A stretch of 64,000 nucleotides of DNA from Methanobacteriota archaeon (GCA_043806635.1 JAZDGT010000033.1:24336-88335); one strand, 5' to 3'. Numbered from the stretch's first letter, positions 26,571-42,570 are shown. Made by a program: numbers and translations. The notes: a model not told the origin generated them from the letters alone.

Positions 26571-26654
26571 GCGGGGATGGCCCAGCCCGGCAAGGCGATG
26601 GATTGCTAATCCATTGGTCTCACGACCTCGGGAGTTCAAATCTCCCTCCCCGCG
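26571..26654 (+). tRNA. tRNA-Ser (anticodon GCU) with long variable arm
   Basis: Acceptor GCGGGGA/TCCCCGC with G73. Anticodon arm ATGGA-ttGCTaa-TCCAT. Variable arm GGTCTCACGACC. T-arm GGGAG-TTCAAAT-CTCCC. Confidence 0.85.
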
Positions 26655-26900
26655 CTAATTATTAACACGGTTATTTAACAGGAGAAAAATACAATATTTA
26701 TTGGTTGATTGGTACTTAAATCCCAACGGAAGTATGCTATTTATTAACATACAGATTTATGAAAGAATATACACAACTCTGAGGACTTTTCCCAACTTTC
26801 CTTATCCATCTACAGACCGACAGATACTATTTTATCAGGGAAATTAATACTTTCATTTATCCCCTATAATGATATTTATAGGATAGGAGATACTATCCCA

Positions 26901-27737
26901 ATGATGTTAAACAACAGACAAAAATGTTTGTATTATTTTTTACGAAAATCTGATTGTTGTTCAAAAATGCAACTTGCAAAAATCTTCTTCCTGATTAGTC
27001 ATGAGAGTAATATCAATGAAAGAGGGAAATTTTATAGTTTTATCCCTTATAAGTTTGGACCATACTCTTTCGAGTTATTCCATGACGTAGAATTGATGGA
27101 GCAAGAAAAAATAGTAGAATCTAATGGAAACAACATTACATTCGTAGGGGACAGTAAAATACCTGTTGAGAGTGCCCCAATCATTGATCAATACTTTGAA
27201 AACTATTTTTTCATAAATGAAAGAAAATTGATAAACATCGTGTATGAAAAATATCCTGATTATACGATTTTTAGTAAAATCAAAAAAAAGAAGGAATATA
27301 TCAGGGATTTAACAGGTGTGTACACGATTGGCTATGAGGGACGGTCGGTTGATGAATTTTTACTGAAAATAATTGATGAAAAAATCCAAATCCTTACTGA
27401 TATTCGGAATAATCCCTGGAGCATGAAATATGGTTATTCAAAACAAAATCTCGAAGTATTTTGTGATAAACTAGGAATCAATTACATGAGTATGCCATCT
27501 CTTGGAATTCCAAGTGCACTGCGGAAAAATTTGAATGAGAAAGAAGCGTACAAAAAACTGTTCACTATGTATCGTACATATCTTGGAAAGAAAGCAATAG
27601 AGATTCAAGATTTAAAACGACTGTCAGAAAAACATAGAATTGCCCTAATGTGTTTTGAGAGGAATCCAGATTATTGTCATCGCGGAGTTCTAGGAAAAGA
27701 ATTAGAAAAATTAGGTGCAGAGGTCGTATTCAATTGA
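26901..27737 (+). CDS. Two-domain protein: unknown N-terminal domain fused to a C-terminal DUF488 domain
   Basis: C-terminal half carries the DUF488 hallmarks YTIGYEGRSVDEF and ALMCFERNPDYCHR. 278 aa. Confidence 0.6.
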   Translation: MMLNNRQKCLYYFLRKSDCCSKMQLAKIFFLISHESNINERGKFYSFIPYKFGPYSFELFHDVELMEQEKIVESNGNNITFVGDSKIPVESAPIIDQYFENYFFINERKLINIVYEKYPDYTIFSKIKKKKEYIRDLTGVYTIGYEGRSVDEFLLKIIDEKIQILTDIRNNPWSMKYGYSKQNLEVFCDKLGINYMSMPSLGIPSALRKNLNEKEAYKKLFTMYRTYLGKKAIEIQDLKRLSEKHRIALMCFERNPDYCHRGVLGKELEKLGAEVVFN

Positions 27738-27757
27738 CATGGCAGAAAAAGAAAGTG

Positions 27758-28507
27758 ACAGTAGTAACAAAAGCATATCCTGAACATAGTAAAAGACATG
27801 GCACAGTAGCATGTACGGCAGGGATAACTGAAGATGGAGAATGGATCCGTCTGTATCCAATTGATATGAGACATTTTATCGGCTTTGATAAGATTTCAAA
27901 ATTTGATATTATCGAAGTGGAATGTTCACCTGATCTGGATAAGCTTAGTAGAAAAGAAAGTCATAAAGTAAGACCTGAATCCATCAAGATAGTCGATGAA
28001 AGTTTGACACGACCGAAAGCTGATTGGAAAAAACGAAATCAAATCGTTTTACCTATGCTTTCGAAATCCATTGAGCAATTACAAGAATCATATGAAAAAA
28101 ACAAAACATCCCTCGGATTGATCAAACCTCGTGAATTGTTCGATTTCGTAAAGACTGAAGACTTACTAATCTACGAAAAAGATAGCTGGTCTTTTACCGT
28201 AAATCTGGATGGTGTACGAATACCGAATGTTTCGAAAATACCGCACATCTTCCAATACCGTTTCAAATGTTCGGGATGCACTGATAGCGAACATGTAATG
28301 CAATGTGAGGATTGGGAGCTCTTTGAATCATATCGTAAGTGGGGAGAACAATATGGTAATACCGACCTTCTTTGGGCAAAACTAAAAGAACGATATTTCG
28401 CATGGATGATAGAGAAAAGAGATCTCTATTTTATTATGGGTACCCATTCTCAATATCCAACATGGTTTATCATTGGAATATATTACCCGCCAAAAAATAG
28501 CAAATAA
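27758..28507 (+). CDS. Hypothetical protein with C-terminal Cys/His cluster, partner of the DUF488 gene
   Basis: The ORF frame is open from 27674 and overlaps the upstream stop. The likeliest start is GTG 27758 or TTG 27734. CSGCTDSEHVMQCEDWE metal-binding-like cluster. Confidence 0.45.
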   Translation, partial: TVVTKAYPEHSKRHGTVACTAGITEDGEWIRLYPIDMRHFIGFDKISKFDIIEVECSPDLDKLSRKESHKVRPESIKIVDESLTRPKADWKKRNQIVLPMLSKSIEQLQESYEKNKTSLGLIKPRELFDFVKTEDLLIYEKDSWSFTVNLDGVRIPNVSKIPHIFQYRFKCSGCTDSEHVMQCEDWELFESYRKWGEQYGNTDLLWAKLKERYFAWMIEKRDLYFIMGTHSQYPTWFIIGIYYPPKNSK

Positions 28508-28514
28508 AAAACCG

Positions 28515-28580
28515 CTCAACAGATATAAAATCAACAAATATGTTAACAAATACGAGTCCGAATCTCCCTTCCCCGCGTAA
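28515..28580 (+). repeat. Cassette-boundary repeat, copy a (65 nt, tRNA-Ser 3' end-like core)
   Basis: ctcaacagatataaaatcaacaaatatgttaacaaatacgagtccgaatctcccttccccgcg. The 3' 27 nt resemble the tRNA-Ser T-arm and acceptor. Confidence 0.6.
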
Positions 28581-28840
28581 TATTCATCAATACGTTAATG
28601 CGCATGAAAAAGATTATATAACACAATAACAGAATTTTCGCTGTTTTGTCCTACAGGCTTTTAACATATATTCCGTAATCCCTCCAGCGGCTTTACTAGG
28701 TCTTTTTTCAGAATAACGCTCTATATATTTTAGGTCAATGATACTTGTTAAAACCTTTTGATTTAATCCTTACCGAGTTGCTTGGTTCTTTCAGACGGAC
28801 AACAAAATGGTTATCCATCGGCTCGCTGTTTAAAGGATTT

Positions 28841-30004
28841 CTATTTCAACGATTTGGTTATCCTTTTTATAGCTTCGTCAATGTTTTCTAAGGATGTTGC
28901 ATACGAAAATCTGAGGTATCCTTCGCCGTATGGGCCAAAGGCAGTTCCAGGGAGCGCTGCGACTCCTGCTTTATAAAGGAGATGATTAGCGCATTCTTGG
29001 GAGTTCATACCTGTTTCTTTGATGTTGGGACAGGTGTAAAAGGCGCCTTTTGGTGAAAGGCAGTGAAAACCGGGGATGGAGTTTAATCCGTTGACGATTG
29101 CATTTCTTTTTTTAGTAAATCGGGTCATCATCTCGGTGATGAATCGTTGATCTCCGGTTAATGCTTCGATGCCTGCCCATTGTGTAAAGGCGGCTGTGCA
29201 GGAGAAAGCGCTTACGAGGAAATCTTGAAGTCGTTCTGCCATTTCGGGTGGGGCTATTATGTAGCCGAGTCGCCAGCCTGTCATCGCGTAGTATTTTGAA
29301 AATCCGTCTAATAAAATGGTTCTTTCTTTTGCTTCATCGCGGGCAGTGGGGGTATAGTGTTTGGTGTCGTCGTATGTCATTTTTGAGTATATTTCATCTG
29401 AGACAATGAAGATATCGTGTTCTTCTGCAAGTTCAGCAATTTCGTCTAGTTCGTTTTTTGTCATGACGGATCCGGTAGGGTTTTGGGGGGAGTTGATGAT
29501 AATGAGTTTTGTTTTTTCTGTTATCCTTTTTTTGATATCATCAGGGTTCATTCGGAACTCGTTTTCTTCTAAAAGCGGTATGGGTATTTGTGTTGCTCCG
29601 AGATATGACGTTACTGATCCGTATGTGGGATAGCCGGGGTCTTGATAGATGACCTCGTCGCTAGGGTTTACGGTGGCGAGCATGGAAAAAAAGATCCCTG
29701 GTTTTAGACCGGGGGTAATCACTACTTGCTCAAGATCGGGTCTGTATCCTCTGGTTTTTTCAATTTCGTCTTGGATCGCTGTTCGTAATTCCAATAACCC
29801 TGCAGGTGGAAGGTAATGTGTTTTTTTCTTTTGAATAGCTTTGATTCCGGCGTCAGCGATGTTTTTTGGGGTTTCTATGTCTGGTTCTCCGATTTCAAAA
29901 TGAAGGATGTTTTTCCCTTGTCGTTCTAGTTCTTGAGCTTTTGCGAGCACTTCAAAGGCTGCTTCTCCGTAGATCCTGTTTGCTCCTTTACTGAGTTGTG
30001 CCAT
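28841..30004 (-). CDS. Class I/II PLP-dependent aminotransferase (AspC family)
   Basis: PLP lysine context DGFSKYYAMTGWRLGY, 387 aa. Confidence 0.85.
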   Translation of the reverse strand: MAQLSKGANRIYGEAAFEVLAKAQELERQGKNILHFEIGEPDIETPKNIADAGIKAIQKKKTHYLPPAGLLELRTAIQDEIEKTRGYRPDLEQVVITPGLKPGIFFSMLATVNPSDEVIYQDPGYPTYGSVTSYLGATQIPIPLLEENEFRMNPDDIKKRITEKTKLIIINSPQNPTGSVMTKNELDEIAELAEEHDIFIVSDEIYSKMTYDDTKHYTPTARDEAKERTILLDGFSKYYAMTGWRLGYIIAPPEMAERLQDFLVSAFSCTAAFTQWAGIEALTGDQRFITEMMTRFTKKRNAIVNGLNSIPGFHCLSPKGAFYTCPNIKETGMNSQECANHLLYKAGVAALPGTAFGPYGEGYLRFSYATSLENIDEAIKRITKSLK

Positions 30005-30018
30005 AGTATCTCCTTTAG

Positions 30019-31842
30019 CTATTTGGTATATTTTTCAAGTCCGAGTTCTTTGATTTTTTCAGGGGTAGGTATGCCGTTGTTATCCCACCCGCGAAGTGTA
30101 TAGTACTCCTGCATACTGTGCTGAAACTCGCCCTCAGGTATAACAATGTTTTTTGCGGGTCCTTTGGTAAAATTATCGTTGAAGAACCGAGGCGGTAAGG
30201 TGTCGGTAGTTGAATCAAGTCCTTCTCTGAGGTTGAATAATCTGACGAGATTCCAGATTCGCTCCCCAGCTTTTAAATAACTTTGAACGGTATGGTCAAA
30301 TCCTGTTGCCAGGTTCCAGAGGGCTACACAGTCCTGTTCGGAAATAGGGGCGAAGTCACAGAGAACCAACGAAAAGAATGCTGCACGTTCGTCTTGTATC
30401 TTTTTTACTAACGCTGCTTTCTTGGTGAAGGAGAACCGTTGGTAATCCGGGTTGTTGAGTTCTGTAGTAACAGTCCATGCTCGTTGATGGCATCCTCCTC
30501 GATCAGATGTTGCATAGGCTAGGCCCATACCGAAGCTTCCGCGTGGATCGTACCCAGGGATTTCTAGTCCTTTCACATGCACGGCTAATTGTTCAGCTTG
30601 TTTACCGAGTTTCTGTGCCGCTGTCCGGACGCCTTCCGCAAGACTTGTGCAGACCCTTGTTTTTTTATAGGCAATATCTTCCATAAGTGTTGCTAACTCT
30701 TTGGTTTTACCCCAACCGATAGAAGTGCCTCCAAGATCTTCACGGGTGATGATGCCTTTTGTATATGCTTCAATAGTAAATCCGAGTACGCCACCAAGGG
30801 AGATGGAATCAAAACCAAGTTCATTACATCGTTTGTTGAGATAGGCGACTTCTTCGATGGTACGAATCCCAAGGTTCGAACCCATGAGCGCAATGGTCTC
30901 GTATTCTGGTCCTACAAGAGTTACTCCTTTGTAGGGCCCAGATTTTATAGAAGATTTATTCCAACACGCGATAATACAGTTAAAACAGGCGCCTCCCTTG
31001 TCAACAATACGGTTCTGCATCGACTCAGCGTTGATGGCTTCACCATGCTCGAAGGTTCCTTCTTGGTAGTTTCTTGTAGGGATAAATCCCCAGTCGTTGA
31101 CCGGTTTCACCAAGTAAGGAGTTCCAAATTTTCTTCGTATGGGAACAAAACCGTTATTCCGGATTTTTTGAAGGACTTCTTGTGCTTTCTCTTGGAATCC
31201 TTCTGCATCATGTACGGGGATTTTGTTGTTTCCGCGGAGCGCTATGGCTTTGAGGTTCTTGGATCCCATGACTGCTCCGGCTCCACCCCTTCCAGCGTGG
31301 CGATGTCCGTCTACGGTGATAGCTGAGAATTTAACAAGGTTTTCTCCTGCGGGCCCGATGAGCGCTGTTTTTACGTTTCCTTCTTGTCTTTGAAGCCATT
31401 CGTGGGTGTCCAAACATTCTTTTCCCCAGATGTCTTTGGCGTCTTTGAACTCGACGGCATCATTGTTGATTGTTATATATAGGGGTTTATCAGCTCGTCC
31501 GGTGAGGCTGATGATATCCCATCCTGCTTTTTTTTGTTCGACGGCAAAGCTTCCGCCGAAATGAGAATCTAGGAATAAACCGGTTTGTGGGGATTTGGTT
31601 ACTATAGTTCCCCGGCCAGAGGTTTGTGCTTTGGTTCCAGTGAGTGGTCCGGTGGTAAGCAGGAGTATGTTTTTTGGTGATAACGGCTCTGTTTTTCTTG
31701 GAAGGTTATCAAAGAGAAGTTTGGCTCCTAGTCCTTTTGCTCCTATGAATTGTTTAGCATCATGGAGATCGGTTTTTTGGGTTGCTATGGTACGGTTCGT
31801 AAGATGTATCGTGAGTATGTTGCCTGTGTATCCCCCAGTCAT
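30019..31842 (-). CDS. aor: Aldehyde:ferredoxin oxidoreductase (tungsten-containing AOR family)
   Basis: N-terminal MTGGYTGNILTIHLT… AOR_N domain, 607 aa, typical AOR length and motifs. Confidence 0.85.
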   Translation of the reverse strand: MTGGYTGNILTIHLTNRTIATQKTDLHDAKQFIGAKGLGAKLLFDNLPRKTEPLSPKNILLLTTGPLTGTKAQTSGRGTIVTKSPQTGLFLDSHFGGSFAVEQKKAGWDIISLTGRADKPLYITINNDAVEFKDAKDIWGKECLDTHEWLQRQEGNVKTALIGPAGENLVKFSAITVDGHRHAGRGGAGAVMGSKNLKAIALRGNNKIPVHDAEGFQEKAQEVLQKIRNNGFVPIRRKFGTPYLVKPVNDWGFIPTRNYQEGTFEHGEAINAESMQNRIVDKGGACFNCIIACWNKSSIKSGPYKGVTLVGPEYETIALMGSNLGIRTIEEVAYLNKRCNELGFDSISLGGVLGFTIEAYTKGIITREDLGGTSIGWGKTKELATLMEDIAYKKTRVCTSLAEGVRTAAQKLGKQAEQLAVHVKGLEIPGYDPRGSFGMGLAYATSDRGGCHQRAWTVTTELNNPDYQRFSFTKKAALVKKIQDERAAFFSLVLCDFAPISEQDCVALWNLATGFDHTVQSYLKAGERIWNLVRLFNLREGLDSTTDTLPPRFFNDNFTKGPAKNIVIPEGEFQHSMQEYYTLRGWDNNGIPTPEKIKELGLEKYTK

Positions 31843-31846
31843 ACGT

Positions 31847-32926
31847 TCACACTTCTTTCATCTCAACACTATTCTTTTTATTCGGTTGTTTCTTTTGTGA
31901 GATGCGATTAATCGTGAGAAGATCTATAAGAAGGGCAAATCCTGTTTGGCGGCGACCTGCACCGGGTCCGACGATAGTAACTGGTCCTAGTTCATCGGTT
32001 AGGTAGGTTAACGCGTTTGTGGCATCGTTTATTCCTGTAAGTGGGTCGCTGAGTGGTAGTTTTTCTGGCCATACTTTGGCTTTCACAGAACCATCGCGTT
32101 GTATCTCAGCGTTGCCGATGAGTTTCCATCGTTTTCCTTCTGTTTTTGCTGCGGCGATATCTTTTGTGGTGATTTCGGCGATGCCTTTTCTTTGGACGTC
32201 GTCCCAGCTGATTTTTTTTCCTAATACGACCGTGGTTAAAATAACTACTTTTCCTAGCGTGTCCCATCCTTCGACGTCTCCGGTGGGGTCTGCTTCTGCG
32301 TATCCTAATTGTTGGGCTTTTTGTAACGCGTCCTCATAGGACATTCCTTCTTCCATGCGAGTGAGAATATAGTTGGTGGTTCCGTTGAGGATGCCTTTGA
32401 ATCCGGTGATGATATTCCCTGCGAGAGTGTAGTGGGCAAGGTTTAAGGCGGGGGTGCCTGCTAGGACAACGCCTTCGAATCCGTAGTGGACATGGTTTGC
32501 CTCAGCTATCTTAAGTAATTCTTTTGCTTGTTTAATGACGGGTCCTTTGTTTGATGATACGACGTGTTTGCCGTGTTGGAGGGCGGTTTTTACGTGTGTT
32601 ATTGCTGGTTCTCCTGTTTTGACGTCGGTGAAGGTAACCTCAATGATGGTATCTGCGTTGGTTTCGGTAATCGTCTTTAGACTATTCATTCCTTTTATTC
32701 CGGTAGGGTATTCATCCAGTTTTTTGTTGTTCTTCACAAGGTTCAGTATTTTGTGTAAGTCAAGGCCGTGTTCGTCATAGACTGATCCTTTTTGGATATC
32801 AGAAATGGCAACGACGGTGTAGTGGAAATCATAGGTTTTCGCCAGCATGTCTTTTTTTTCAAGTAATATTTCGGTGAGTCCTTGTGCAACCGTCCCGTAT
32901 CCGATAAAGGCGATGTGGAATTGCAT
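31847..32926 (-). CDS. hom: Homoserine dehydrogenase
   Basis: N-terminal GYGTVAQG NAD-binding motif. Catalytic-domain motifs GILNGTTNYIL and LGYAEADPTGDVEGWD. Confidence 0.8.
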   Translation of the reverse strand: MQFHIAFIGYGTVAQGLTEILLEKKDMLAKTYDFHYTVVAISDIQKGSVYDEHGLDLHKILNLVKNNKKLDEYPTGIKGMNSLKTITETNADTIIEVTFTDVKTGEPAITHVKTALQHGKHVVSSNKGPVIKQAKELLKIAEANHVHYGFEGVVLAGTPALNLAHYTLAGNIITGFKGILNGTTNYILTRMEEGMSYEDALQKAQQLGYAEADPTGDVEGWDTLGKVVILTTVVLGKKISWDDVQRKGIAEITTKDIAAAKTEGKRWKLIGNAEIQRDGSVKAKVWPEKLPLSDPLTGINDATNALTYLTDELGPVTIVGPGAGRRQTGFALLIDLLTINRISQKKQPNKKNSVEMKEV

Positions 32927-32928
32927 GG

Positions 32929-34248
32929 TTATGTCCTCTGGTGATGAAGATGTGGAGCTGCAACGAACGTTAGTCCTCGCTCTGTAAGTGCGCGAGCGGT
33001 GTTATTGATTGCTTCATGTTTGTCAAGGTAGTTTCTTAGGAGATGAGGCATGAGTTTTTTTTCTTCGATTTCGTTTTTAGGTAGGAAATAGTCGAGGATG
33101 TCGGAGGGGTGTTCTCTTTTGCTGTCTATTTTGATTTCTCCTCCTTCGTGTTTGGCGCTCATATTTTTTACATGTGTTGCGAGTTCGAGGATTTCTTCAC
33201 GTCGGTCATAGGGTTGGACGACGATGCTTTTGTATGTTTCTAAGATATGGTGTTCAAACCGTACGTAGTCTTCTAACCCCAGAGAGTGTCGTATCTCGTT
33301 ACTGAGGTCGATGGTGGTGTTGTTGACTGAGTTTGAGAAGTTAAATCCTACGAGTGATGTAGAGCCGTCTTCTCGTGAGAAGAAGCGGGCGGCCATTAGC
33401 GTCCAGAATATGGCGTAGGGGTTGTCGTTTCCCATGTATACGGAGATTTTGAATTCTATGTTGATTTCGAGTTTGTGGAGGAGGTAGCCTAGGAAGATTG
33501 TTCCTGGGTTGATGTTGAGGACTTGTTTCACTCCGTAGTTGGTGTAGTAGTAGAGGAATTCGTCTACCCATTTGAGGGGGTAGTCATTTGGTTGGCCGAC
33601 TCCTCCGAAGTAGCCGGTTATGGTTTCTGGTCCGCCCAAGTGGACGTTGGAGCCGTCTGTTCCTCTGGTATCGAGGGTTTCACACCAGCTCGCTCCGATG
33701 ATTTGCATGGCTGCGGTCATGGCGAGGAGGTCGTCGTCTTCTTCTTGTTCTTTCATGCAGCGAACGCGGATGAAGCGACCGGGCATGAGTTCTCCGTTTT
33801 TTACTGCTTGTCGGGCTTGGGTCATAAAGAAAGGGAAGTATTGGCAGGCGCTGATTTCTAAGGTAACGGCAAAATCCTCGTTGAATTCCATGTCTTTGAT
33901 TTTATCGCCTAGGATTTTTCTGCGGTAGTCGTTTATGGTGATAAAGGCTTTTTTACCTCGTTGTTCTAGTAGCCATTGGAGATCGTTGTAGTAGGGTGAG
34001 TTTTTTTGTTTTAGTCGTGTCATGAGGTTTTCGATTTTTCCTGCTTCGTTGGCTTTTCGGTTGATTTCTTCAGGGCCGCCGTATTTGTCGATTATTGATA
34101 GGAATTTGTTTATGATTTTGTTGTCTGGGTGTGTTAAAAAAGAGTTTATTTCTTCAAGTCTTTTTTTTTCGATGGCTAGTTTGTTTCGGATATCCGTAGG
34201 CATGTTTTGTTCCTCCCCTTTTTTTATTTGTTTATGTCTGGGAAGCAA
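32929..34248 (-). CDS. Hypothetical conserved protein (439 aa), co-directional and tightly packed with hom, aor and the aminotransferase
   Basis: Stop-to-start spacing of 2 nt to hom. No recognisable motif. Confidence 0.45.
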   Translation of the reverse strand: MLPRHKQIKKGEEQNMPTDIRNKLAIEKKRLEEINSFLTHPDNKIINKFLSIIDKYGGPEEINRKANEAGKIENLMTRLKQKNSPYYNDLQWLLEQRGKKAFITINDYRRKILGDKIKDMEFNEDFAVTLEISACQYFPFFMTQARQAVKNGELMPGRFIRVRCMKEQEEDDDLLAMTAAMQIIGASWCETLDTRGTDGSNVHLGGPETITGYFGGVGQPNDYPLKWVDEFLYYYTNYGVKQVLNINPGTIFLGYLLHKLEINIEFKISVYMGNDNPYAIFWTLMAARFFSREDGSTSLVGFNFSNSVNNTTIDLSNEIRHSLGLEDYVRFEHHILETYKSIVVQPYDRREEILELATHVKNMSAKHEGGEIKIDSKREHPSDILDYFLPKNEIEEKKLMPHLLRNYLDKHEAINNTARALTERGLTFVAAPHLHHQRT

Positions 34249-36095: not shown

Positions 36096-36343
36096 TGATC
36101 TTCGTGTATGTATTGTTAATCACTGCGATATTATCGTCGTATCGTTTATTTGTTGGACCGACTATACAAGATAGGCTTGTCTCTTTGAGCTGTGTTTCAG
36201 TGATACTTATCATTATTTTAATAATTCTTAGCATTCATTACAATCAAATGTTTTATCTTGATATAGCTATAACATTTCTTTTACTGGATTTTGTCGGCAC
36301 GATAGCATTCACAACGTATCTTGGACGAGAGGAGACAAAATGA
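36092..36343 (+). CDS. mrpF: Mrp antiporter subunit F
   Basis: 83 aa, 3 TM, ATGA overlap with mrpE. Confidence 0.55.
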   Translation: MMIFVYVLLITAILSSYRLFVGPTIQDRLVSLSCVSVILIIILIILSIHYNQMFYLDIAITFLLLDFVGTIAFTTYLGREETK

Positions 36344-36699
36344 ATATTATTTTGGAATTGCTGTCTCTTCTCTTTATATCTATAGGATGCTTTGTGATGT
36401 TATCTGCTGCTCTTGGTTTATATCGCTTTCCCGACATTTACATGCGTTTACACTCAAGTACAAAAGTGAACACTGGCGGTGCAATGACATTACTTTTTGG
36501 ATTAATGCTTAGAACTGGTATAAGCGCTCTGTCAGCAAAGATTTTTATTATAATAGCACTTATATTTATCCTGACTCCTGTTGTTTCTCATGCGATTGCT
36601 CGATCTGCGCATTTACAAAGTAAAACACCGATAATTTCTTTTGAAGCACATCCGAAGAAAAAATATGAGTATCATGATTTCTTTAGGAGAAAACAATGA
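36340..36699 (+). CDS. mrpG: Mrp antiporter subunit G
   Basis: MnhG signature LGLYRFPDIYMRLHSSTKVNTGG. Confidence 0.75.
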   Translation: MNIILELLSLLFISIGCFVMLSAALGLYRFPDIYMRLHSSTKVNTGGAMTLLFGLMLRTGISALSAKIFIIIALIFILTPVVSHAIARSAHLQSKTPIISFEAHPKKKYEYHDFFRRKQ

Positions 36700-36926
36700 T
36701 TGAACAAGTTCTTTTGATTTCCTTGGTAATCTTTTCGATTCTTGTTGTAGTGGAAAAACAATTATTGAGATCAGTAGTATTCCTGGCCTCAAGTACTGTA
36801 CTGCTTGTTGTACTATTGTTTCTTTTACAGGCACCTGATGTTGCGATAACAATGGCTGTGGTTGGTACTGGCGCAACAACCATCCTTTATCTCACAGTGA
36901 TTAAGAAAGTAGGTGGATTAAAATGA
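36696..36926 (+). CDS. Small Mrp membrane subunit (MrpB-N/DUF4040-like)
   Basis: 76 aa, 2-3 TM, overlapping stop/start in the operon. Confidence 0.4.
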   Translation: MIEQVLLISLVIFSILVVVEKQLLRSVVFLASSTVLLVVLLFLLQAPDVAITMAVVGTGATTILYLTVIKKVGGLK

Positions 36927-37192
36927 AAATGGATATAGTGGGGAAGTTTGCGGTGGCTTGCATCCTATCACTTTTTGGAATAATCATTATTTCATCTACG
37001 ATGCTTACATATTCCACCACCTTAACTTCAGAGATATCGGAATATTGTCTAGAAAATTTGTTCCTTACCGGTGCAATAAATGCTGTCTGCGCGATTTTAT
37101 TGGATTTTAGAGCATATGACACTCTAGGGGAGATTTTGATCATATTTGTTACTATTTCTGGGGTTATGCTGCTGGCAGGGAGGCGAAGATGA
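36923..37192 (+). CDS. Small Mrp membrane subunit
   Basis: 89 aa, hydrophobic, in-operon. Confidence 0.4.
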   Translation: MKMDIVGKFAVACILSLFGIIIISSTMLTYSTTLTSEISEYCLENLFLTGAINAVCAILLDFRAYDTLGEILIIFVTISGVMLLAGRRR

Positions 37193-37572
37193 CTTCCAGA
37201 ATCGTTAAAACAGCAGCAAGAGCACTTTTCCCGTTTATATTGCTGTTAGGGATTTATATTATCTTTTATGGCCATTTATCACCCGGTGGAGGCTTTCAGG
37301 GTGGTGTCATTTTAGCAATGGCAGTACTATTAGTTATTATAGTATATGGGGGAAGCAGAGTTCAAAAATTTATTCCATATCTCTCTTTTGTAGAGATTGC
37401 TGGTGTAACTTTATTCATTATTGTTGGAATATCGGGTATTGTCAGTGGAAAACAATTTTTAACAAATCTCGGTACGATCCCTTTACTGAACATTGTAATT
37501 GGTTTAAAGGTATTTGCGGGTTTAGTTTTAATGTATATATTTCTCATTAGATGGGAGTTGAAAAATGATTAA
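37189..37572 (+). CDS. mrpB: Mrp antiporter subunit B-like
   Basis: 127 aa, 4 TM, position preceding the mrpC-like gene. Confidence 0.5.
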   Translation: MTSRIVKTAARALFPFILLLGIYIIFYGHLSPGGGFQGGVILAMAVLLVIIVYGGSRVQKFIPYLSFVEIAGVTLFIIVGISGIVSGKQFLTNLGTIPLLNIVIGLKVFAGLVLMYIFLIRWELKND

Positions 37573-37888
37573 TGGATTTAACATAGGGATCATTCTTTTT
37601 TTGATAGGTTTGTATGGTATTATCACCAATAAAAACGTAATTAAAATAATTATGTCAATGGGCATAATGGGAAATGGTGTTGTGTTATTTTTCATCTCAT
37701 TAGGATATGTTGTTGACAGCGCAGCACCAATCCTGACATCGGGAGTTGAAAACATTGTTGATCCATTACCTCAGGCGCTCATGCTTACTATGATTGTAAT
37801 AAATCTGTGCATGACTGCACTAGCTTTAACTATTGTCGTCTGGCTTTATCATGAATTTGGCACCTTAGATTTGGGAGAGATGAGATGA
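37565..37888 (+). CDS. mrpC: Mrp antiporter subunit C (NuoK-like)
   Basis: 107 aa, 3 TM, NuoK/MnhC-like. Confidence 0.6.
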   Translation: MINGFNIGIILFLIGLYGIITNKNVIKIIMSMGIMGNGVVLFFISLGYVVDSAAPILTSGVENIVDPLPQALMLTMIVINLCMTALALTIVVWLYHEFGTLDLGEMR

Positions 37889-39546
37889 TAGAACATCTTC
37901 CAATATTTTTGTTAATAACCCCGCTACTATCGGCATTATGTGTTGCTTTAATTTCCTTGGTTTCAAAAACAGAATGGATTCAAAAAACCATAGCATTTAT
38001 CGGGTTGTCTCTCCCATTTTTTTATTTGACATTTCTGTTTCAAGAATTATCTAAAGGAGTAATAGAATATGATATGGGGGGATGGGTTAAGCCATATGCC
38101 GTAACATTAGTCGTAGATGAATTGGCATTTACCCTAGCACTCATCACCTCAATTATCACATTCTTGTGTTTTATTTATTCTATAAAATATATGAGAGGAA
38201 CGGATAGCAAATTCTATTTTTTCTTTCTCCTAATGGTCACTGGTTTATATGGCATCTTCCTGACTGGTGATATTTTTAATCTCTATGTTTTTTTTGAGCT
38301 TACCGTCATTTGCAGTTATATCCTTATAACATTTGGTGATAAGAAAACATCGTTAAAAGCTTCTTTCAAATATCTTATACTGGGGAGTATAGCATCCTTC
38401 TTTTTTTTGCTAGGGATAGGATTGCTGTATATTAAAACAGGTTTGCTAAATATTGAATATCTATCAATGCATATTCATAAAATTGACACTCAAACGCAGA
38501 TGGTTATATTTTCATTGTTTTTAGGAGCTATAGGTATTAAAGCTGCAATAATACCGTTTCATACATGGTTGGTAAGTGCACATTCAACGGCGCCCTCGCC
38601 AATTTCCGCTATTTTATCAGGCATTACTGTAAAAACCGGCATTTACATTTTTATAAGAGTTTTTGCTCTCGGTTTTACGTTACAAAACCTGAATGAAATT
38701 ATAATGGTCTTTGGTGCGATAACCGCATTGGGCGGAGTTATAGGTGCTTTGGTTGAGTGGGACATCAAACGGTTATTGGCGTACCATACAATTTCACAGA
38801 TAGGCTTTATCGTCGTAGGCATTGGGACATTTTCAACTATAGGTGTAGCTGGTGGACTATATCATATTGTGAATCATGCTATCTTCAAAGGTTTATTGTT
38901 TTTATGTGCAGGCGCGATAATTTACAGAACTGGTACTAAAGATATTAGAGAACATGGTATAGGAAAAACCATGCCTGTTACTCTGGTAACGTATATAATT
39001 GCAGCATTAGCTATCTCTGGTATTACACCAATTAATGGCGCTGTCAGCAAATCAATGATAGAATCATCTGTATATGATTACCCTATAATATGGCTGATTT
39101 TAGTTTTCGCTACTATAGGGACTATTACCACGTTTTCCAAGATATTATATTATTCCTTCATCAAATCTGCAAAAAAAGATAAAGAGACATCAAAATATCA
39201 TGAGGTTCCATTCTCAATGCAACTATCCATGATTGTTTTAGCGTTCTTATGTATTCTCCTAGGCGTTCTTCCAAATTTATGGTTAAACAATCTAATATTA
39301 CCAGCAACAGCATCTATTGTGGGAGCGTATAACAATATACAAATCAGTTTGTTTGAACCTTTCTCGATTTTTAAAGAATGGCTAATTGTTGCACTAGGCC
39401 TCCTCCTTCTCAAGGTTATTATAGTACGATCAAAAGACATTGATAGACTAAGGAGATTAATCTCAAAATTCAATTTGAATATATGCATATTCTTGATGAT
39501 TATTACATTGATCCTGGTGTTTATTGTTCTCGAGGTGTTCAATTAG
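37885..39546 (+). CDS. mrpD: Mrp antiporter subunit D (NuoL/M/N-type antiporter-like large subunit)
   Basis: 553 aa, about 14 TM. Conserved antiporter-module residues in broken helices (e.g. HTWLVSAHSTAPSP…). Confidence 0.8.
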   Translation: MIEHLPIFLLITPLLSALCVALISLVSKTEWIQKTIAFIGLSLPFFYLTFLFQELSKGVIEYDMGGWVKPYAVTLVVDELAFTLALITSIITFLCFIYSIKYMRGTDSKFYFFFLLMVTGLYGIFLTGDIFNLYVFFELTVICSYILITFGDKKTSLKASFKYLILGSIASFFFLLGIGLLYIKTGLLNIEYLSMHIHKIDTQTQMVIFSLFLGAIGIKAAIIPFHTWLVSAHSTAPSPISAILSGITVKTGIYIFIRVFALGFTLQNLNEIIMVFGAITALGGVIGALVEWDIKRLLAYHTISQIGFIVVGIGTFSTIGVAGGLYHIVNHAIFKGLLFLCAGAIIYRTGTKDIREHGIGKTMPVTLVTYIIAALAISGITPINGAVSKSMIESSVYDYPIIWLILVFATIGTITTFSKILYYSFIKSAKKDKETSKYHEVPFSMQLSMIVLAFLCILLGVLPNLWLNNLILPATASIVGAYNNIQISLFEPFSIFKEWLIVALGLLLLKVIIVRSKDIDRLRRLISKFNLNICIFLMIITLILVFIVLEVFN

Positions 39547-39875
39547 TCATCATATTATGATGAAATTACTAATCAGCGACTGAAAAGTGACACTACCAAA
39601 CCAACCAATCTGATTACCTATCTGATACATATCGATATCGTATTTCTCCATCCCACAGATCCTATCATTTTAAAGGAGTAGAATTAGTTTTGGGGATTTT
39701 ACTCTGGTTCAGTACCCACTCCAGCGGCTTTCGGTAATGGGGGCTTTGAAGATTCGGTAACCAAATCCCATCAGGGAGTACTATCACCAATGGTGAAAAG
39801 CCTTTCACCCATGAACATTTTAGTAGTAGCAGGTATCCTCGATGCAAGCATCTTACATCAATAGATAATATTATT

Positions 39876-39942
39876 GTTCAACAGATATGATACCATCAAA
39901 TGTGTTAACAAATACGAGTCCGAATCTCTCCCCCCGCGCACT
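39876..39942 (+). repeat. Cassette-boundary repeat, copy c
   Basis: ttgttcaacagatatgataccatcaaatgtgttaacaaatacgagtccgaatctctccccccgcgcac. Confidence 0.6.
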
Positions 39943-40221
39943 CTTTTTTTACCAGTAGATACGTAACAAAATCTCATTCTTAACATACGTTTTACCCAAG
40001 AACGCGAAAGAAATGGAGTTTATTAAGGGGTACGCTATGTAGGGAGTACGCTCGCAAGTACAGGATTGAATCATCAGGTGATATAAATGGCTACAAAATT
40101 GAAACGACTGGAAAGGAAGCATAAAAAAAACAAAAGGAAACGCAGAATGGCAAGATGAACGGGGAAAGTCGGAGAGAAAAAGTAGACTGATTCCATTTCT
40201 ACACTATTACTCCCACGTCCC

Positions 40222-41433
40222 TCATAACTTTTCGTGTTTTTTGTTCCACTCGTATATCTTTTCTCTCTCTTTAAGCTGTTTTTTCAATCTCTCAACATCG
40301 ATACCATTGTAAACATCTATTGTTTTTCCTGCAACGTTATCCCAAGTAAAAAGTTCTATTTCCTGTTTTCCGTTTTCCGCTAGTGTTTTTCTTAAAGATT
40401 CATATCGTAGTAATGATACGATCTTGCTTGCTATCTCGTCAGAATCCCAGAAATCAACCTTTATACAGTTTTTGAAAGTCTCGCATACACCAGCGGTTTT
40501 AGAAGCAATCGTTGGCGTACCAGCAGAAATAGCCTCAAGAGCCGTGATACCAAAGGGCTCACTCATACTAGGCATAACGTACACACTAGAAATTCCATAA
40601 ATATGTTTAACTTCCTCTTCAGTTAAACGTCCTGTGAAAATAACTCGGTTTGAAATACCCAGGTCTACGGCCTGATTAATCAAACGTGGTAGCATATCCC
40701 CTGCGCCTGCAACAACAAAACACACATCAGGTTCATAATCCAATACCTTTCTAGCAGCTTTCAAGAAAAACTCGGCTCCTTTTTGGATTGTGAGACGACC
40801 TAAAAACAAAACGATTTCTTGTTTTTTGCCTTCAGGAATAGGGTACACAGCGTTATGTACAACACTGATTATATCGGGATTTATACCATATTTTTCAACG
40901 ATCACACGTTTGGTGAAATGACTCACAGCAATTATTCTATCTGCTTTTTCCATACCTTTTCTTTCTAAATCAATAAACCATTGATTAGGATGAAGCCAGC
41001 CACTTCGGTCATATTCAGTAGAATGAATCGTAAGAACCATGGGAACGCCCATTTCTTCTTTTAAAATCGTAGCTGCTTCCATTGTGAGCCAATCATGAGC
41101 ATGAATAAAATCGAATTTACCTTCAGCTTTTGCAATTGCTTTAACTTTTGCAACAACAAGTTGGTTATATCTATGAACTGCTTCAAAAAAATTACCAGCT
41201 AATGCTTTATCTTCTGGCCGATCATAGGGGAAAATCTCTGTTTCTCCAACTTCTTTTATCAAGAGATTTGGTTGGTTACTATTCGCTGATTGTTTTGTTT
41301 TAGGCATAAAAAAGTATACTTTCACGTTCTTATCAGCTAGACTTCGGGTGAGTCCCTCGCAATGCGTAGCAAGACCGCCCGCTTTGAACGGTGGATATTC
41401 CCAGCCAATCATTGCTATTCTCATATCTATCAT
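40222..41433 (-). CDS. Glycosyltransferase family 4 (GT-B, retaining)
   Basis: EX7E motif region (EPFGITALEAISAGTP). 403 aa. Confidence 0.8.
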   Translation of the reverse strand: MIDMRIAMIGWEYPPFKAGGLATHCEGLTRSLADKNVKVYFFMPKTKQSANSNQPNLLIKEVGETEIFPYDRPEDKALAGNFFEAVHRYNQLVVAKVKAIAKAEGKFDFIHAHDWLTMEAATILKEEMGVPMVLTIHSTEYDRSGWLHPNQWFIDLERKGMEKADRIIAVSHFTKRVIVEKYGINPDIISVVHNAVYPIPEGKKQEIVLFLGRLTIQKGAEFFLKAARKVLDYEPDVCFVVAGAGDMLPRLINQAVDLGISNRVIFTGRLTEEEVKHIYGISSVYVMPSMSEPFGITALEAISAGTPTIASKTAGVCETFKNCIKVDFWDSDEIASKIVSLLRYESLRKTLAENGKQEIELFTWDNVAGKTIDVYNGIDVERLKKQLKEREKIYEWNKKHEKL

Positions 41434-41956
41434 TACTCCGTTGGGGTTCTTTGTTCGAGGGTAGAATTTTAATTCTCATTCAACCTCTCACGACGTTCCC
41501 CCAAATTTCACAATTATTAAAATATAGATCTTTTGATCTCTTATTTTTGATATAAAATTCCATCAATAGGTTGCTTGATAGGTATATATCAATAAATAGC
41601 GTCTTCTGAATCTATTATTTAATATTTTTTCCTCCTAAAAAGGAGATTTGGACGACATAATCGTCCTTGATATTTTTTTATCTCATTTTCTTAGTTTTCA
41701 GCGTTAAATGCGGAATTCATCCATCCGCTCTTGTAAATATTGCTCTTCGGAAGTCATCTGCGTCCAATGATTGAAGTCGTTTTCGATTCCTCCAGTTCAT
41801 GTCTGTTTCAAAGTTTGTAAATTCTCTGTCCATATTCATTGATTTCACCTGTCCTTTCCGAAGTTTGTCGGATGATAGTAGTATGCAGTAGGCAGTATAT
41901 ATCATTGTGTACAAGGACATATAAGTACGTAAAATGATTACATTTTTGTGTAATGT

Positions 41957-42115
41957 ATGGATAAAAGAATTAGAATGAACATATCTGTGACAAAGGAAGA
42001 AAATGCACTCATCAAGAAACTCGCGAAGGAAGAAGAACGACCATATAGCAGACAAATAGTGTACATGATGAATTTCTACATAAAAAACAATAAATTAAGC
42101 AGGAAAATGAGGTGA
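41957..42115 (+). CDS. Small ribbon-helix-helix (CopG/Arc-like) protein, 52 aa, absent from the ORF track because under 60 aa
   Basis: MDKRIRMNISVTKEENALIKKLAKEEERPYSRQIVYMMNFYIKNN. N-terminal beta-strand then two helices. 6 nt upstream of the Zn-ribbon gene. Confidence 0.4.
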   Translation: MDKRIRMNISVTKEENALIKKLAKEEERPYSRQIVYMMNFYIKNNKLSRKMR

Positions 42116-42121
42116 AATAAT

Positions 42122-42397
42122 ATGGTAAAATGTGAAGAATGTGGTAAGAAATTAAGTATTTTACAAGGGTATCGTCACCCCGCATTAGGAACAAGGTTTT
42201 TAGTATGTGGAAAATGTTTCTATAAAATAGACGAAAGTATGAAACGATGGAGCAAGTTTTGTCTATTAGATTCATTCAACTCAGAATCATCCAAGATTGA
42301 CATCCGAGAGGCATGGAATACAAGTATATCAAACGACCTCCAGTTACAAAAATGGTTTAACAATCTTTGGGTTAAAAAAGATCTCAGGTGCTTGTAG
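42122..42397 (+). CDS. Small zinc-ribbon protein
   Basis: CEECGKK…18…CGKC. 91 aa. Confidence 0.4.
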   Translation: MVKCEECGKKLSILQGYRHPALGTRFLVCGKCFYKIDESMKRWSKFCLLDSFNSESSKIDIREAWNTSISNDLQLQKWFNNLWVKKDLRCL

Positions 42398-42502
42398 AAT
42401 AAGATATGAAACCCCTTAGGGTTTTTATCATGATTTCATTTATACATTCCTGAAATTTTGAGATTGACAACATCCACTTTCATATCAAAAAAATAAAAAA
42501 AC

Positions 42503-42570
42503 TCCTCAGCAGATAGACGATCATCAAATGTGTCACCAAATATGAGTCAGAATCTCTCTCCTCCCGCGTA
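42503..42570 (+). repeat. Cassette-boundary repeat, copy d (most diverged, terminal)
   Basis: ctcctcagcagatagacgatcatcaaatgtgtcaccaaatatgagtcagaatctctctcctcccgcgta. Confidence 0.55.

Follow-up and report, generated by a model that had tools for sequence, protein, structure and literature searches.

The window, by which we mean the whole 64-kb stretch of DNA analyzed, contains an island at 26.6-44.1 kb (17.5 kb) that runs from tRNA-Ser(GCU) through corA to the arcTGT-like gene at 44124. The features of the locus, with positions counted from the first nucleotide of the window, are as follows:

23611-25062, minus strand: replication factor C (RFC) large subunit, chromosomal flank on the tRNA side (Pfam AAA/RFC lid)
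26571-26655, plus strand: tRNA-Ser(GCU), the array anchor (both ARAGORN and Rfam)
26656-28515: cassette 1, DUF488 fusion (26901-27737) and a 277-aa unknown (27674-28507) (Pfam); GC 33-36%
26656-26735, plus strand: left-end module of cassette 1 (CTAATTATTAACACGGTTATTTAACAGG..., 'type b' right flank)
28516-28577, plus strand: repeat copy A, subfamily i (nhmmer E=9e-17)
28578-34600: cassette 2, aminotransferase, AOR, homoserine dehydrogenase and a 439-aa unknown, all on the minus strand (Pfam)
34601-34662, plus strand: repeat copy B, subfamily ii (E=1.5e-9)
34663-39877: cassette 3, type-b left-end module (34663-34745) and Mrp/Mnh-type operon; GC 33-35%
35559-39546: Mrp/Mnh-type cation/proton antiporter operon, 8 genes (Pfam)
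39745-39877, plus strand: compound left arm of copy C (alignment with related contigs L008 and L010)
39878-39939, plus strand: repeat copy C, subfamily i, the best preserved (E=5.5e-19)
39940-42505: cassette 4, GT4 glycosyltransferase and small ORFs (Pfam, translation); GC 36-39%
39944-39985, plus strand: degenerate fifth copy after copy C (71% to 34621-34655)
40222-41433, minus strand: GT4 glycosyltransferase (Pfam)
42122-42397: Zn-ribbon-like 91-aa ORF (translation)
42506-42568, plus strand: repeat copy D, the most decayed (E=8e-13)
42569-44123: distal island segment with corA at 42719-43810 (Pfam CorA)
44124-45995, minus strand: arcTGT-like gene, conserved chromosomal flank on the far side (Pfam)
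46029-47579, minus strand: PurH, conserved chromosomal flank on the far side (Pfam)

Four ~62-nt repeats, all in the same orientation and starting at 28516, 34601, 39878 and 42506, subdivide the island; these are the four copies of a ~65-nt family in the original prediction, whose coordinates were within 1-3 nt of ours. A repeat search returned them as one four-copy direct-repeat family (28498-28577, 34583-34662, 39860-39939 and 42488-42567) and no further family of this kind in the rest of the window. The degenerate pattern TCARCAGRTA-N28-GAGTYNRAATCYC occurred at four sites only, all on the plus strand, with no occurrence in 100 shuffles. Each repeat has two parts, a conserved left arm with a TCAACAGATAT box followed by a 12-bp palindrome (TTTGTTAACAAA or TTTACYRGTAAA), and a core that duplicates the final ~24 nt of the tRNA; the palindrome ends 3-4 nt short of this core. 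The predicted resemblance to the 3' part of the tRNA was borne out: in every copy, the terminal ~24 nt can be aligned to the T-loop and acceptor 3' strand. [quoted passage not shown] Copy A is built of the TCAACAGATAT box, a near-palindrome ATGTTAACAAA and the tRNA-like core GAGTCCGAATCTCCCTTCCCCGCG, and copy B of the box TCAACAGGTAT, the palindrome TTTACCAGTAAA and the core GAGTCGAAATCCCACTCCCCGCG, a subfamily also found in contigs L004, L005, L013, L025 and others. Copy D reads TCAGCAG... and GTGTCACCAAA, followed by a core with an additional CT. The degenerate fifth copy combines a palindrome-like TTTACCAGTAGA with a decayed core GTAACAAAATCTCATTC, and has the geometry of the palindrome-type flank found 3' of the tRNA in integrase-bearing relatives (see below). 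The compound left arm of copy C, judged by its alignment, appears to be a stack of att remnants that are older and degenerate; it is conserved in L008 and L010 and has no Rfam match. The repeat likewise had no match in Rfam, and the repeat search found neither an inverted-repeat partner nor terminal inverted repeats. RNAalifold, run on 94 copies, predicted no common fold for either strand (0 kcal/mol, z about 0); the arm holds direct 10-mers and one short palindrome, not a long hairpin.

Each cassette has the tRNA or a repeat at its left end and a repeat at its right end, and contains one to eight genes on either strand. Thus the repeats do delimit cassettes as predicted, while the island comprises five segments rather than four once the corA segment is counted. 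Pfam matches agreed with the predicted DUF488 fusion, aminotransferase (class I/II), AOR, hom, eight-gene Mrp operon (MNHE, MrpF, MnhG, MbhD, MbhE, MnhB, Oxidored_q2 and Proton_antipo_M), GT4 and CorA, so that the cargo includes ion transport, redox and amino-acid enzymes, and a glycosyltransferase. As for the two minigenes assigned to cassette 4, the RHH gene had no Pfam match and the Zn-ribbon is indicated only by plausible CxxC pairs. GC content is low in cassettes 1, 3 and 4 (33-39%) and resembles the host flanks in cassette 2 (44-46%). The distal segment is foreign-like in GC (~37%) and shows no convincing terminal att remnant, the candidate at ~43846 scoring no better than background. 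The ~105-nt homology reported between copy B and the tRNA 3' end with its downstream flank is real (84% for 26631-26699 against 34638-34706, and weaker to ~34745). Its flank portion is in fact the modular left end of a cassette: the left-end module of cassette 1 is 84% identical to 34663-34706, and type-b modules are found at many junctions, 3' of many repeats and of the tRNA in other contigs. As claimed, no integrase gene lies in the array, and none was found elsewhere in the window by Pfam, tblastn/phmmer or inspection of translations, including the upstream side, which carries RFC and a beta-helix protein.

To see how the family behaves beyond the window, as proposed along with the original prediction, we searched with a repeat profile and obtained 114 strong copies, distributed over the window and 72 fetched loci (73 sequence stretches in all). 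The carriers, nearly all Thermoplasmata-type contigs, were 11 genome loci and 61 of 64 metagenome stretches; the remaining three stretches were rejected as chance matches to genuine tRNAs. Copies were not scattered but formed arrays, anchored at RFC-tRNA-Ser wherever the contig extends that far. Adjacent copies were co-oriented in 41 of 41 pairs at a spacing of 0.16-6.5 kb (median 2.2 kb), none of the 27 multi-copy loci had mixed orientation, and short 'empty' units of 164-234 nt exist. The box and palindrome of the arm show pair identities of 0.9-1.0, compared with 0.25-0.35 in flanking non-coding DNA, in contigs with RFC proteins that share only 53-63% identity with that of the window. Conservation covers the box, the palindrome and GAGT...AATCTC and is loose at the central bases of the T-loop and in the acceptor part, which is the pattern expected of a core site with a variable overlap. 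In most repeats the T-loop reads TCCGAAT or TCCAAAT, with C at tRNA position 55, whereas live tRNAs have TTCGAAT or TTCAAAT. Exchanging the C55 segment into the tRNA would thus damage it, which argues that either recent exchanges took place from repeat to repeat or the copies are relics. Across the loci the sole recurrent ORF spanning a repeat was one of 79 aa on the minus strand, which has no integrase similarity.

The chromosomal frame around the array is kept in relatives, and the DNA within it is wholly different. RFC (an identical protein is annotated as RFC large subunit in an NCBI MAG) adjoins tRNA-Ser(GCU) in at least 13 related contigs, and the order RFC, tRNA-Ser(GCU), array is found in L022, L024, L025, L039, L047 and the window, with unrelated cassettes in each. 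With regard to the proposed check for empty sites, L080 and L082 have the tRNA and no repeats, and L082 retains 4.7 kb between RFC and tRNA-Ser on one side and arcTGT-PurH on the other, compared with 19 kb in the window. The sharpest comparison is that of L085 with L022, which are 93.1% identical over 2,275 nt up to the final base of the tRNA and unrelated beyond. Insertion polymorphism is therefore seen in this pair, with its breakpoint at the tRNA end, and also in L082 versus the window and among the six anchored contigs.

Cassettes recur in differing orders among arrays, at a constant orientation relative to the repeat. A cassette encoding radical-SAM, FAD-oxidoreductase and isochorismatase proteins was found in at least eight contigs in the same orientation to the repeat; its neighbors on the left or on the right vary among the seven of these that were compared closely. 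Where its left end is visible (L008, L027 and L056), homology begins just past the ...CGCG of the left repeat, and in all seven it takes in the arm of the right repeat. Among copy pairs with only the left flank in common, similarity is above background at columns 11-38, and among those with only the right flank in common from column 43. These limits suggest an exchange zone at columns ~26-43, and strand exchange may occur within the T-loop.

A recombinase search, also suggested originally, revealed a candidate enzyme at the same tRNA. In seven related contigs (L081 and L083-L088), a 311-aa tyrosine integrase (Phage_int_SAM and Phage_integrase domains) and a partner protein of 181-194 aa lie directly 3' of tRNA-Ser; these contigs capture the tRNA-side end of the element, never its right end. 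Genomes bearing the integrase and genomes bearing arrays interleave by RFC identity (for example, 94% for L022 vs L084). In the integrase-bearing loci the 3' flank of the tRNA opens with TTGTTAACAAA or TAC(C/T)AGTAAA, and 42 of 49 TTGTTAACAA sites in 736 kb stand at -4 or +15 of a T-arm core, so that the integrase-bearing elements and the repeats share palindromes at a fixed spacing. In seven other contigs (L089-L095), in which the tRNA and host genes are absent and no terminal overlap was found, an attP-like site lies just upstream of the partner-integrase operon, arranged as palindrome, 4 nt, core, 4 nt, palindrome. The repeat profile matches this site at E=1.8e-5; its palindrome variant, TTTACCGGTAAA, is unlike the variants in the window. 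The left ends of most cassettes bear modules of the TTAGCACGG type, not the palindrome found 3' of the tRNA in integrase-bearing elements, and since these modules differ, the cassettes are not simply integrase-bearing elements minus the integrase. No integrase similarity was detected beside any repeat (tblastn or phmmer). Remnants of the integrase or its partner were undetected in the window and in array loci, except that L045 and L052 have two integrases, apparently unrelated. An element of the SSV type, which partitions its integrase gene, was rejected because no integrase fragments were detected at the repeats and the att site of the integrase-bearing relatives is outside int, upstream of the partner gene; in copy A, a single plus-strand frame runs through the repeat without a stop, and on inspection by eye it meets a TAG immediately before the repeat.

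The kept frame, the breakpoint at the tRNA end, the integrase at the same tRNA and the attP-like site together point to the repeats being attR-type sites left by tandem integration. On these sequence comparisons, the region at 26.6-44.1 kb is quite probably a tandem integration island anchored at tRNA-Ser(GCU) and composed of integrase-less cassettes, as the original prediction had favored. Integration would target the segment from the T-loop to the 3' end of the tRNA (attB/attL core). Tyrosine integrases are known to use three sublocations within tRNAs, among them the T stem-loop, and archaea provide known cases of both tandem integration and integrase loss (PMC8371274, PMC6563490). In each ~62-nt repeat, the arm would then be the right end of an inserted element, and the core a copy of the tRNA from 3 bp before the T-loop to the 3' end. 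A XerC/D-like tyrosine integrase would have produced these sites by repeated site-specific integration, acting on the tRNA T-arm or on a repeat already present, with every new integration shifting older insertions away from the tRNA. The best candidate for this enzyme would be the 311-aa integrase with its 181-194-aa partner in the related Thermoplasmata-type genomes, and we infer that it may have made the repeats. With all segments of the window lacking an integrase, the cassettes would be CIME-like or satellite-like cargo; as in CIMEs, there are att sites on both sides, no integration genes, and an autonomous element at the same site in relatives. Their movement would be possible only with an integrase supplied in trans, for which the recurrence of one cassette in different arrays is indirect evidence, and they may still be mobile. 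Site-specific stacking at a tRNA is a known route to genomic islands, which here takes an unusually tidy, integron-like form.

Whether the sites still recombine is a separate matter. The repeats could instead be attR scars of ancient integrations that no longer recombine, with the cassettes fixed in place, a reading that differs from the one above on present-day activity only and not on origin. It would account for the lack of an integrase in the window, the visible decay of copy D and of the extra copy at 39944-39985, the freely varying acceptor-like part, the C55 T-loop that cannot restore a tRNA, and the host-like GC of cassette 2. We regard it as possible though doubtful, because the arm is far better conserved than flanking non-coding DNA, shared cassettes are ordered differently from one array to another, and site occupancy differs between close relatives. 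Alternatively, the array may have originated by a one-time integration and been reshuffled since by homologous recombination between repeats after DNA uptake. Such shuffling needs no integrase, in keeping with the arrays, and the conserved units, from the 62-nt repeat alone to ~250 nt with modular flanks, offer homology; the exchange zone is also central within the conserved block, as expected of random crossovers, and module exchange by homologous recombination has been proposed among tandem archaeal elements (PMC8371274). However, it leaves unexplained why every cassette bears the arm, why the spacing of box and palindrome is fixed, and why a dedicated integrase with the same palindromes sits at the same tRNA, and it thus seems unlikely.

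Two further readings concern the nature of the repeat itself. A dispersed tRNA-derived repeat or MITE, which the original prediction had left open as an undescribed class, or a small structured RNA or split-tRNA half gene that is intergenic by chance, would suit the ~62-nt size, the intergenic position, the tRNA-like 3' part and the 'empty' units, but is highly improbable. The copies are never scattered or inverted and always delimit cassettes, the window has no others, the arrays stand at one tRNA, and gene sets travel with the repeat; moreover, the missing tRNA 5' half and the negative searches for terminal inverted repeats, Rfam families and RNAalifold structure weigh against it. A classical integron, with an IntI integrase, attI and attC sites, is brought to mind by the short co-oriented recombination sites between accessory cassettes and by the integrase at the head of the site in relatives, and integrons have been reported in Archaea (PMC9668308). 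It is nevertheless an extremely remote prospect, as RNAalifold detected no attC-type hairpin, the cassettes are often multi-gene and in either orientation, the sites derive from a tRNA 3' end, and the integrase of relatives is part of the inserted DNA, 3' of the tRNA, and does not precede an attI.

Returning to the tandem integration island, its closest described parallels are the archaeal tandem tRNA elements, namely plasmids and proviruses of Sulfolobales, Thermococcales, Methanococcales and Thaumarchaeota (PMC8371274, PMC6563490). They share with the window the 3' part of a tRNA as target, the T stem-loop as a recognized sublocation, direct repeats of the tRNA segment flanking the inserts, an intact tRNA at one end, arrays built by reuse of the site, and integrases sometimes lost after integration. 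Unlike them, the arrays described here consist of up to five or more small (0.9-6.5 kb), cargo-only units, all integrase-less, each of which has a highly conserved ~38-nt arm and recurs in differing orders across genomes. In the literature searched, we did not encounter the uncultured Thermoplasmata-type host clade or this pairing of att site and integrase.

[quoted passage not shown] The known examples are bacterial, conjugation-linked and usually of two or three partners (PMC5704250), whereas the arrays here are archaeal and longer, draw on a population-wide shared cassette pool, and show no transfer genes. Tycheposons of Prochlorococcus (bioRxiv 10.1101/2020.12.28.424599) also form tRNA-seeded islands with niche-adaptive cargo, in which a partial tRNA copy alone separates neighbors, newcomers push older elements inward, and degenerate remnants and extra partial tRNAs accumulate. 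They carry integrases and replication modules, in contrast to the integrase-less units here, belong to a different domain of life and integrase lineage, and have no described counterpart of the arm with its palindrome. The likeness to integrons (PMC9668308) is functional: a fixed platform, ordered co-oriented sites and exchangeable cassettes. Here, by contrast, the sites are tRNA-derived without an attC hairpin, there is no resident IntI/attI/Pc module, and the cassettes are often operons in either orientation that presumably have their own promoters.

A tRNA-Ser(GCU) gene, identified by both ARAGORN and Rfam, heads an array of four direct repeats in the window. The array lies between RFC (the replication factor C large subunit) on the tRNA side and arcTGT and PurH on the far side:

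23611-25062, RFC, flank on the tRNA side
26571-26655, + strand, tRNA-Ser(GCU)
28498-28577, + strand, direct repeat, copy A (repeat unit from 28516)
34583-34662, + strand, direct repeat, copy B (repeat unit from 34601)
39860-39939, + strand, direct repeat, copy C (repeat unit from 39878)
42488-42567, + strand, direct repeat, copy D (repeat unit from 42506)
44124-45995, arcTGT, flank on the far side
46029-47579, PurH, flank on the far side

The repeat search found no further copies across the whole 64-kb window. A degenerate pattern, TCARCAGRTA-N28-GAGTYNRAATCYC, was composed so as to fit all four copies; it matched these four sites alone, all on the + strand, with no match in 100 shuffles, bearing out the array described in the original prediction. 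Behind copy C, at 39944-39985, lies one additional copy that is degenerate. Pfam confirmed the gene content that had been assigned to the region (DUF488 fusion, aminotransferase, AOR, homoserine dehydrogenase, eight-gene Mrp operon, GT4 glycosyltransferase and CorA), except for a proposed 'RHH' minigene, which was left unconfirmed. No integrase is encoded anywhere in the window, as had been proposed for the array, and a search of the window for similarity to the integrases of relatives and their partner proteins (see below) was negative. The GC content is 33-39% in cassettes 1 (DUF488 fusion), 3 (Mrp operon) and 4 (GT4) and in the corA segment, and 44-46% in cassette 2 (aminotransferase, AOR and homoserine dehydrogenase), which is similar to the flanks (45-48%). 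Two ORFs gave no Pfam match, one of 439 aa (32929-34248) and one of 277 aa with CxxC motifs (27674-28507), which overlaps the end of the DUF488 fusion gene and has its stop 8 nt ahead of copy A.

Among the loci fetched from other genomes and metagenomes (L numbers), L082 has the order RFC, tRNA-Ser(GCU), three genes spanning 4.7 kb, an arcTGT-like gene and PurH. Since the same flanking genes are 4.7 kb apart in L082 and 19 kb apart in the window, the region from 26.6 to 44.1 kb, including the low-GC corA segment, is variable island DNA. The tRNA-Ser gene is present without repeats both in L082 and in L080, which comes from a 1.9-Mb genome. Apart from an identical protein of a 'Methanobacteriota archaeon' MAG, the best match of the window RFC is 63% identical. 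A 436-aa beta-helix (NosD-like) gene (25173-26483) lies between RFC and tRNA-Ser in the window, and none of the relatives examined, in which RFC is ~85-330 nt from tRNA-Ser, has a gene between the two; it appears to have been inserted 5' of the tRNA, an event for which the att-site model discussed below has no explanation. We do not claim a terminal tRNA remnant between corA and arcTGT (~43846), since it scored no better than random sites elsewhere.

Every copy of the repeat is built from the same parts, given here by repeat column:

Columns 1-11, box TCAACAGATAT
Columns 12-23, variable stretch
Columns 24-35, 12-bp palindrome, with three further bases after it
Columns 39-62, tRNA-like core GAGTCCGAATCTCCCTCCCCGCG

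The core corresponds to the tRNA from the last 3 bp of the T-stem via the T-loop and the acceptor strand to the discriminator. By their palindromes, the copies in the window fall into subfamily i (copies A, C and D; TTTGTTAACAAA) and subfamily ii (copy B; TTTACYRGTAAA), and the palindrome types told apart were TTGTTAACAA, TACYRGTA and TACCGGTA. Among copies with unrelated flanks, pair identity was 0.85-1.0 at the box, the outer palindrome positions, GAGT and AATCTC, 0.55-0.68 at the three central T-loop bases and 0.40-0.64 in the acceptor part, compared with 0.25-0.35 in the unrelated flanks themselves. RNAalifold on 94 copies gave no consensus secondary structure on either strand (0 kcal/mol) and an Rfam search of the repeat had no match, indicating that the repeat does not form an attC-like hairpin and is not a structured RNA. 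The reading of TCAACAGATA as the degenerate D-arm of a full pseudo-tRNA was dropped, since the repeat has no D or anticodon stem pairing. The box may resemble archaeal dif/XerA half-sites, a likeness that we do not claim.

A scan of 185,579 species-representative genomes yielded 11 loci with the repeat, ten in MAGs labelled Thermoplasmata, Thermoplasmatota, Thermoplasmatales or 'Methanobacteriota' and one in a Bathyarchaeia bin, and a scan of a metagenome collection yielded 64 stretches, mostly from lake-sediment samples, three of which are real tRNAs that matched the repeat pattern by chance. Two repeat-pattern scans and one integrase scan of a viral contig collection found nothing. With a profile built from the copies, we detected 114 strong copies, spread over 73 sequence stretches, namely the window and 72 fetched loci. 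Two to five copies were present in 27 of these 73 stretches, with all 41 adjacent pairs co-oriented and a spacing between adjacent copies of 164-6,529 nt (median 2.2 kb). Six units, of 164-234 nt, were gene-free. 'Empty' units, in which two repeats lie 164-234 nt apart (L036, L063, L041, L001/L033/L062 and L021), consist of a cassette left end followed almost immediately by an arm, and could be cargo-deleted cassettes or minimal mobile units. Chance pattern matches on rumen-type metagenome contigs (L030 7166-7238 and L058 301-373) are a well-formed tRNA with the anticodon loop TTTTAAT; its anticodon UUA would read the UAA stop codon, ARAGORN assigned it no amino acid, and it may be a suppressor tRNA, either of phage origin or from a recoded organism.

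Six contigs including the window have the same array head, with the RFC large subunit followed by tRNA-Ser(GCU) and the array, and the cassette content of these six arrays is unrelated between contigs. In these relatives, what comes right after the tRNA is one of a small set of modular types that also occur behind the repeats, such as TAAATATTTAGCACGGTTA... and CTAATAATTAGCACGGTTATTTAAC... These types, common to the tRNA flank and the repeat flanks, account for the '105-nt' match that the original prediction had described between the tRNA-Ser 3' end with its flank and copy B: the match is real (84% identity between 26631-26699 and 34638-34706), and both stretches are type-b cassette left ends. 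About 60-80 nt past the core, type-b left ends carry a further tRNA-3'-end-like fragment with a small hairpin (AAATCCCGACGGGAT, GGTTCAAATCCCTTCCCTACA), located at 26715-26735 and 34722-34745 of the window and in flanks in L006, L011 and L047; these fragments suggest that the junctions contain nested remnants, either of a second att family or of another tRNA target. Upstream of copy C, ~135 nt of non-coding sequence (39745-39877) are conserved in distant contigs (L008 45-183; L010, minus strand, ~7565-7700). This block was considered as a non-coding RNA and dropped, because Rfam gave no match and the block aligns as stacked degenerate att remnants, a tRNA-3'-like GGTAACCAAATCCCCTCAGCGAGTA and then a palindrome-like piece with CCCGACGG.

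We clustered 527 ORFs of the loci to compare the gene sets around the repeats. Depending on the contig, the same gene sets were found to the left or to the right of a repeat, with constant orientation to it. A Pfam-confirmed cassette of radical-SAM, pyridine-nucleotide-disulphide oxidoreductase and isochorismatase genes occurs in at least eight contigs, and a detailed comparison of seven contigs (L007, L008, L027, L031, L047, L056 and L068) revealed that its left or right neighbours vary, the right neighbour being common to L008 and L027 and to L007 and L031. Homology of this cassette begins directly after the ...CGCG of the left repeat where the left end is present (L008, L027 and L056), and takes in the arm of the right repeat in all seven. 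Further genes that recur as cargo encode AbiEii/AbiEi and ParE-type toxin-antitoxin systems, dehydrogenases, and flavodoxin-like, membrane and surface proteins. Most cassette left ends carry TTAGCACGG-type modules and not the palindrome. The exchange point was mapped by pairwise comparison of 95 unique copies: pairs sharing only the left flank were above background at columns 11-38 and at background at columns 43-45 and 54-62, and pairs sharing only the right flank were at background at columns 12-20 and above it from column 43. These profiles place the exchange point within the repeat, at the T-loop-like heptamer or immediately ahead of it.

Directly downstream of tRNA-Ser(GCU), beside RFC, L081 encodes a 311-aa protein that has a SAM-like N-terminal domain and a Phage_integrase domain (E=1e-25) and is preceded by a 181-aa partner. 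L083-L088 have the same layout, with homologues at 66-82% identity; the MCM helicase and transposase genes also present in L083 would fit a plasmid-like element that has integrated. The wider integrase family comprises 2,259 proteins at E <= 1e-20 across archaeal phyla. By RFC identity, array-bearing and integrase-bearing genomes are interleaved in one clade, and the RFC of L022 (array) is 94% identical to that of L084/L085 (integrase). The DNA of L085 and L022 is 93.1% identical over 2,275 nt, with the alignment ending at the last base of the tRNA.

Start of the flank after the tRNA in integrase-bearing loci
L084, L085: TTTTTTGTTAACAAATTTTATATAG
L086-L088: AATTTTGTTAACAAATTATTTATAG
L083: TAAATCTACCAGTAAAC
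L081: TAAAATTACTAGTAAAAT

These flank starts represent both palindrome types of the repeat arms. Within the 736 kb of sequence that was collected, there are 49 occurrences of TTGTTAACAA, 36 of them exactly 4 nt upstream of a T-arm-like core and six exactly 15 nt past a T-arm, that is, 4-5 nt beyond the tRNA end. L089-L095, contigs of up to 11.8 kb that lack the tRNA and host genes, encode a 1,619-aa PolA-like protein, and in them TTTACCGGCAAA-GTTA-AGTTAGAATCTCCCTCCTCGCG-TAAT-TTTACCGGTA precedes the partner-integrase operon. Judged by its sequence, this site (palindrome, 4 nt, core, 4 nt, palindrome) has the layout expected of attP and is a candidate attP-like site; the repeat profile matches it over columns 20-61 (E=1.8e-5).

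Two other integrases were rejected: that of L052 (388 aa, beside a ParB-like gene) is unrelated, its 21 homologues being in contexts without repeat or tRNA, and that of L045 is unlinked, being 7.7 kb away from where the array ends and 5' of a tRNA-Cys. The 388-aa tyrosine recombinase family (21 members) has ParB-like neighbours in two of the five loci examined (L052 and L077). Its loci (L052 391-3051 and L076-L079) are unassociated with tRNAs or the repeat, and L076 carries both this family and the 311-aa type, together with D5-primase-like genes. An alignment-based PHROGs scan of 176 representative ORFs gave no strong recurrent recombinase among the best 25 families.

The chromosomal frame, the L085/L022 breakpoint, the cassette reuse and the integrase in relatives support the predicted P-arm/core junctions from tandem integration at the tRNA-Ser 3' end, and we regard an origin of the repeats as att sites of tandem integrations as highly probable. 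The repeats would be attR-type junctions in which an element arm is joined to a tRNA 3' segment that has been displaced, the outcome of successive integrations at the tRNA-Ser(GCU) T-arm. The tRNA homology begins 2-3 bp before the 7-nt T-loop, and crossover in the dyad-symmetric T stem-loop, one of three known tRNA sublocations (PMC8371274, citing Williams 2002), would give exactly that. The 311-aa integrase family is probably, with less certainty, the one responsible. Tandem site reuse and integrase loss are both documented in archaea (PMC8371274, PMC6563490); the window cassettes fit the definition of CIME-like elements, with att sites kept and integration genes lost (PMC5704250), and the overall picture parallels tycheposon islands (bioRxiv 10.1101/2020.12.28.424599). 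The building of islands by tandem integration at tRNA genes is a known principle. We see the array as an archaeal integration island of this tRNA-anchored kind: its cassettes lack an integrase and are reused between genomes much as in integrons, and its att arm is unusually well conserved.

In most repeats the T-loop (TCCGAAT) carries C at the place of tRNA position 55; this base is unacceptable to a live tRNA and points either to recent exchange from repeat to repeat or to sites that are relics. Homologous recombination between the repeats is a viable route of cassette shuffling, and present-day mobility of the cassettes appears doubtful. Rather unlikely, in our judgement, is the reading in which uncultured Thermoplasmata-type archaea use the array as a functioning, integron-like platform for capturing genes. 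A tyrosine integrase specific for tRNA-Ser(GCU) would then reside at the tRNA in some genomes and be supplied in trans in others, and integrase-less cassettes would be actively excised, circularised and re-inserted via the conserved box-palindrome-T-arm sites; a cassette pool for ion transport, redox, toxin-antitoxin and defence functions would be shared population-wide.

What is unusual is the regularity: across a deep clade of uncultured archaea from sediments, 114 copies preserve the recombination site, and arrays are strictly co-oriented. Also unusual is that small integrase-less cassettes recur in varied order, with a candidate integrase, its partner and an attP-like candidate site in hand. 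The result is a well-defined system in which three questions can be tested: how accessory genes pass between archaea that have no known machinery for conjugation or transformation, whether an integron-like cassette economy exists outside IntI/attC, and whether T-arm sites with flanking palindromes are a general recognition scheme of this large archaeal integrase family (>2,000 homologues). In practice, the repeat profile can locate island boundaries, and the repeats may be the reason for contig breaks at these positions in MAGs of the clade.

A second island of the same kind lies at tRNA-Val(TAC) (11074-11147), spanning 11074-16032 of the window, with partial 3' copies of the tRNA:

12660-12701, 42 nt, 95% identical
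~14295-14311, flank like that of tRNA-Val itself
~16016-16032

The last two copies have a common 117-nt left arm (14195-14311 and 15916-16032, 74%). The island contains no integrase (11074-16032); its segments carry genes for a PIN toxin and the toxin's partner, for a secreted protein of 460 aa and for an AAA_14/DUF4143 ATPase. Homologues of this ATPase occur as cassettes in the tRNA-Ser arrays of L023, L027 and L028, and in L081 an integrase adjoins tRNA-Val. Three tRNA-Gln genes, one UUG and two CUG, lie within 10 kb on both strands (8366-8437, 10281-10355 and 18624-18696) and surround the tRNA-Val island and a gene of the size expected for glutaminyl-tRNA synthetase; the CUG duplication may be connected with island rearrangements.
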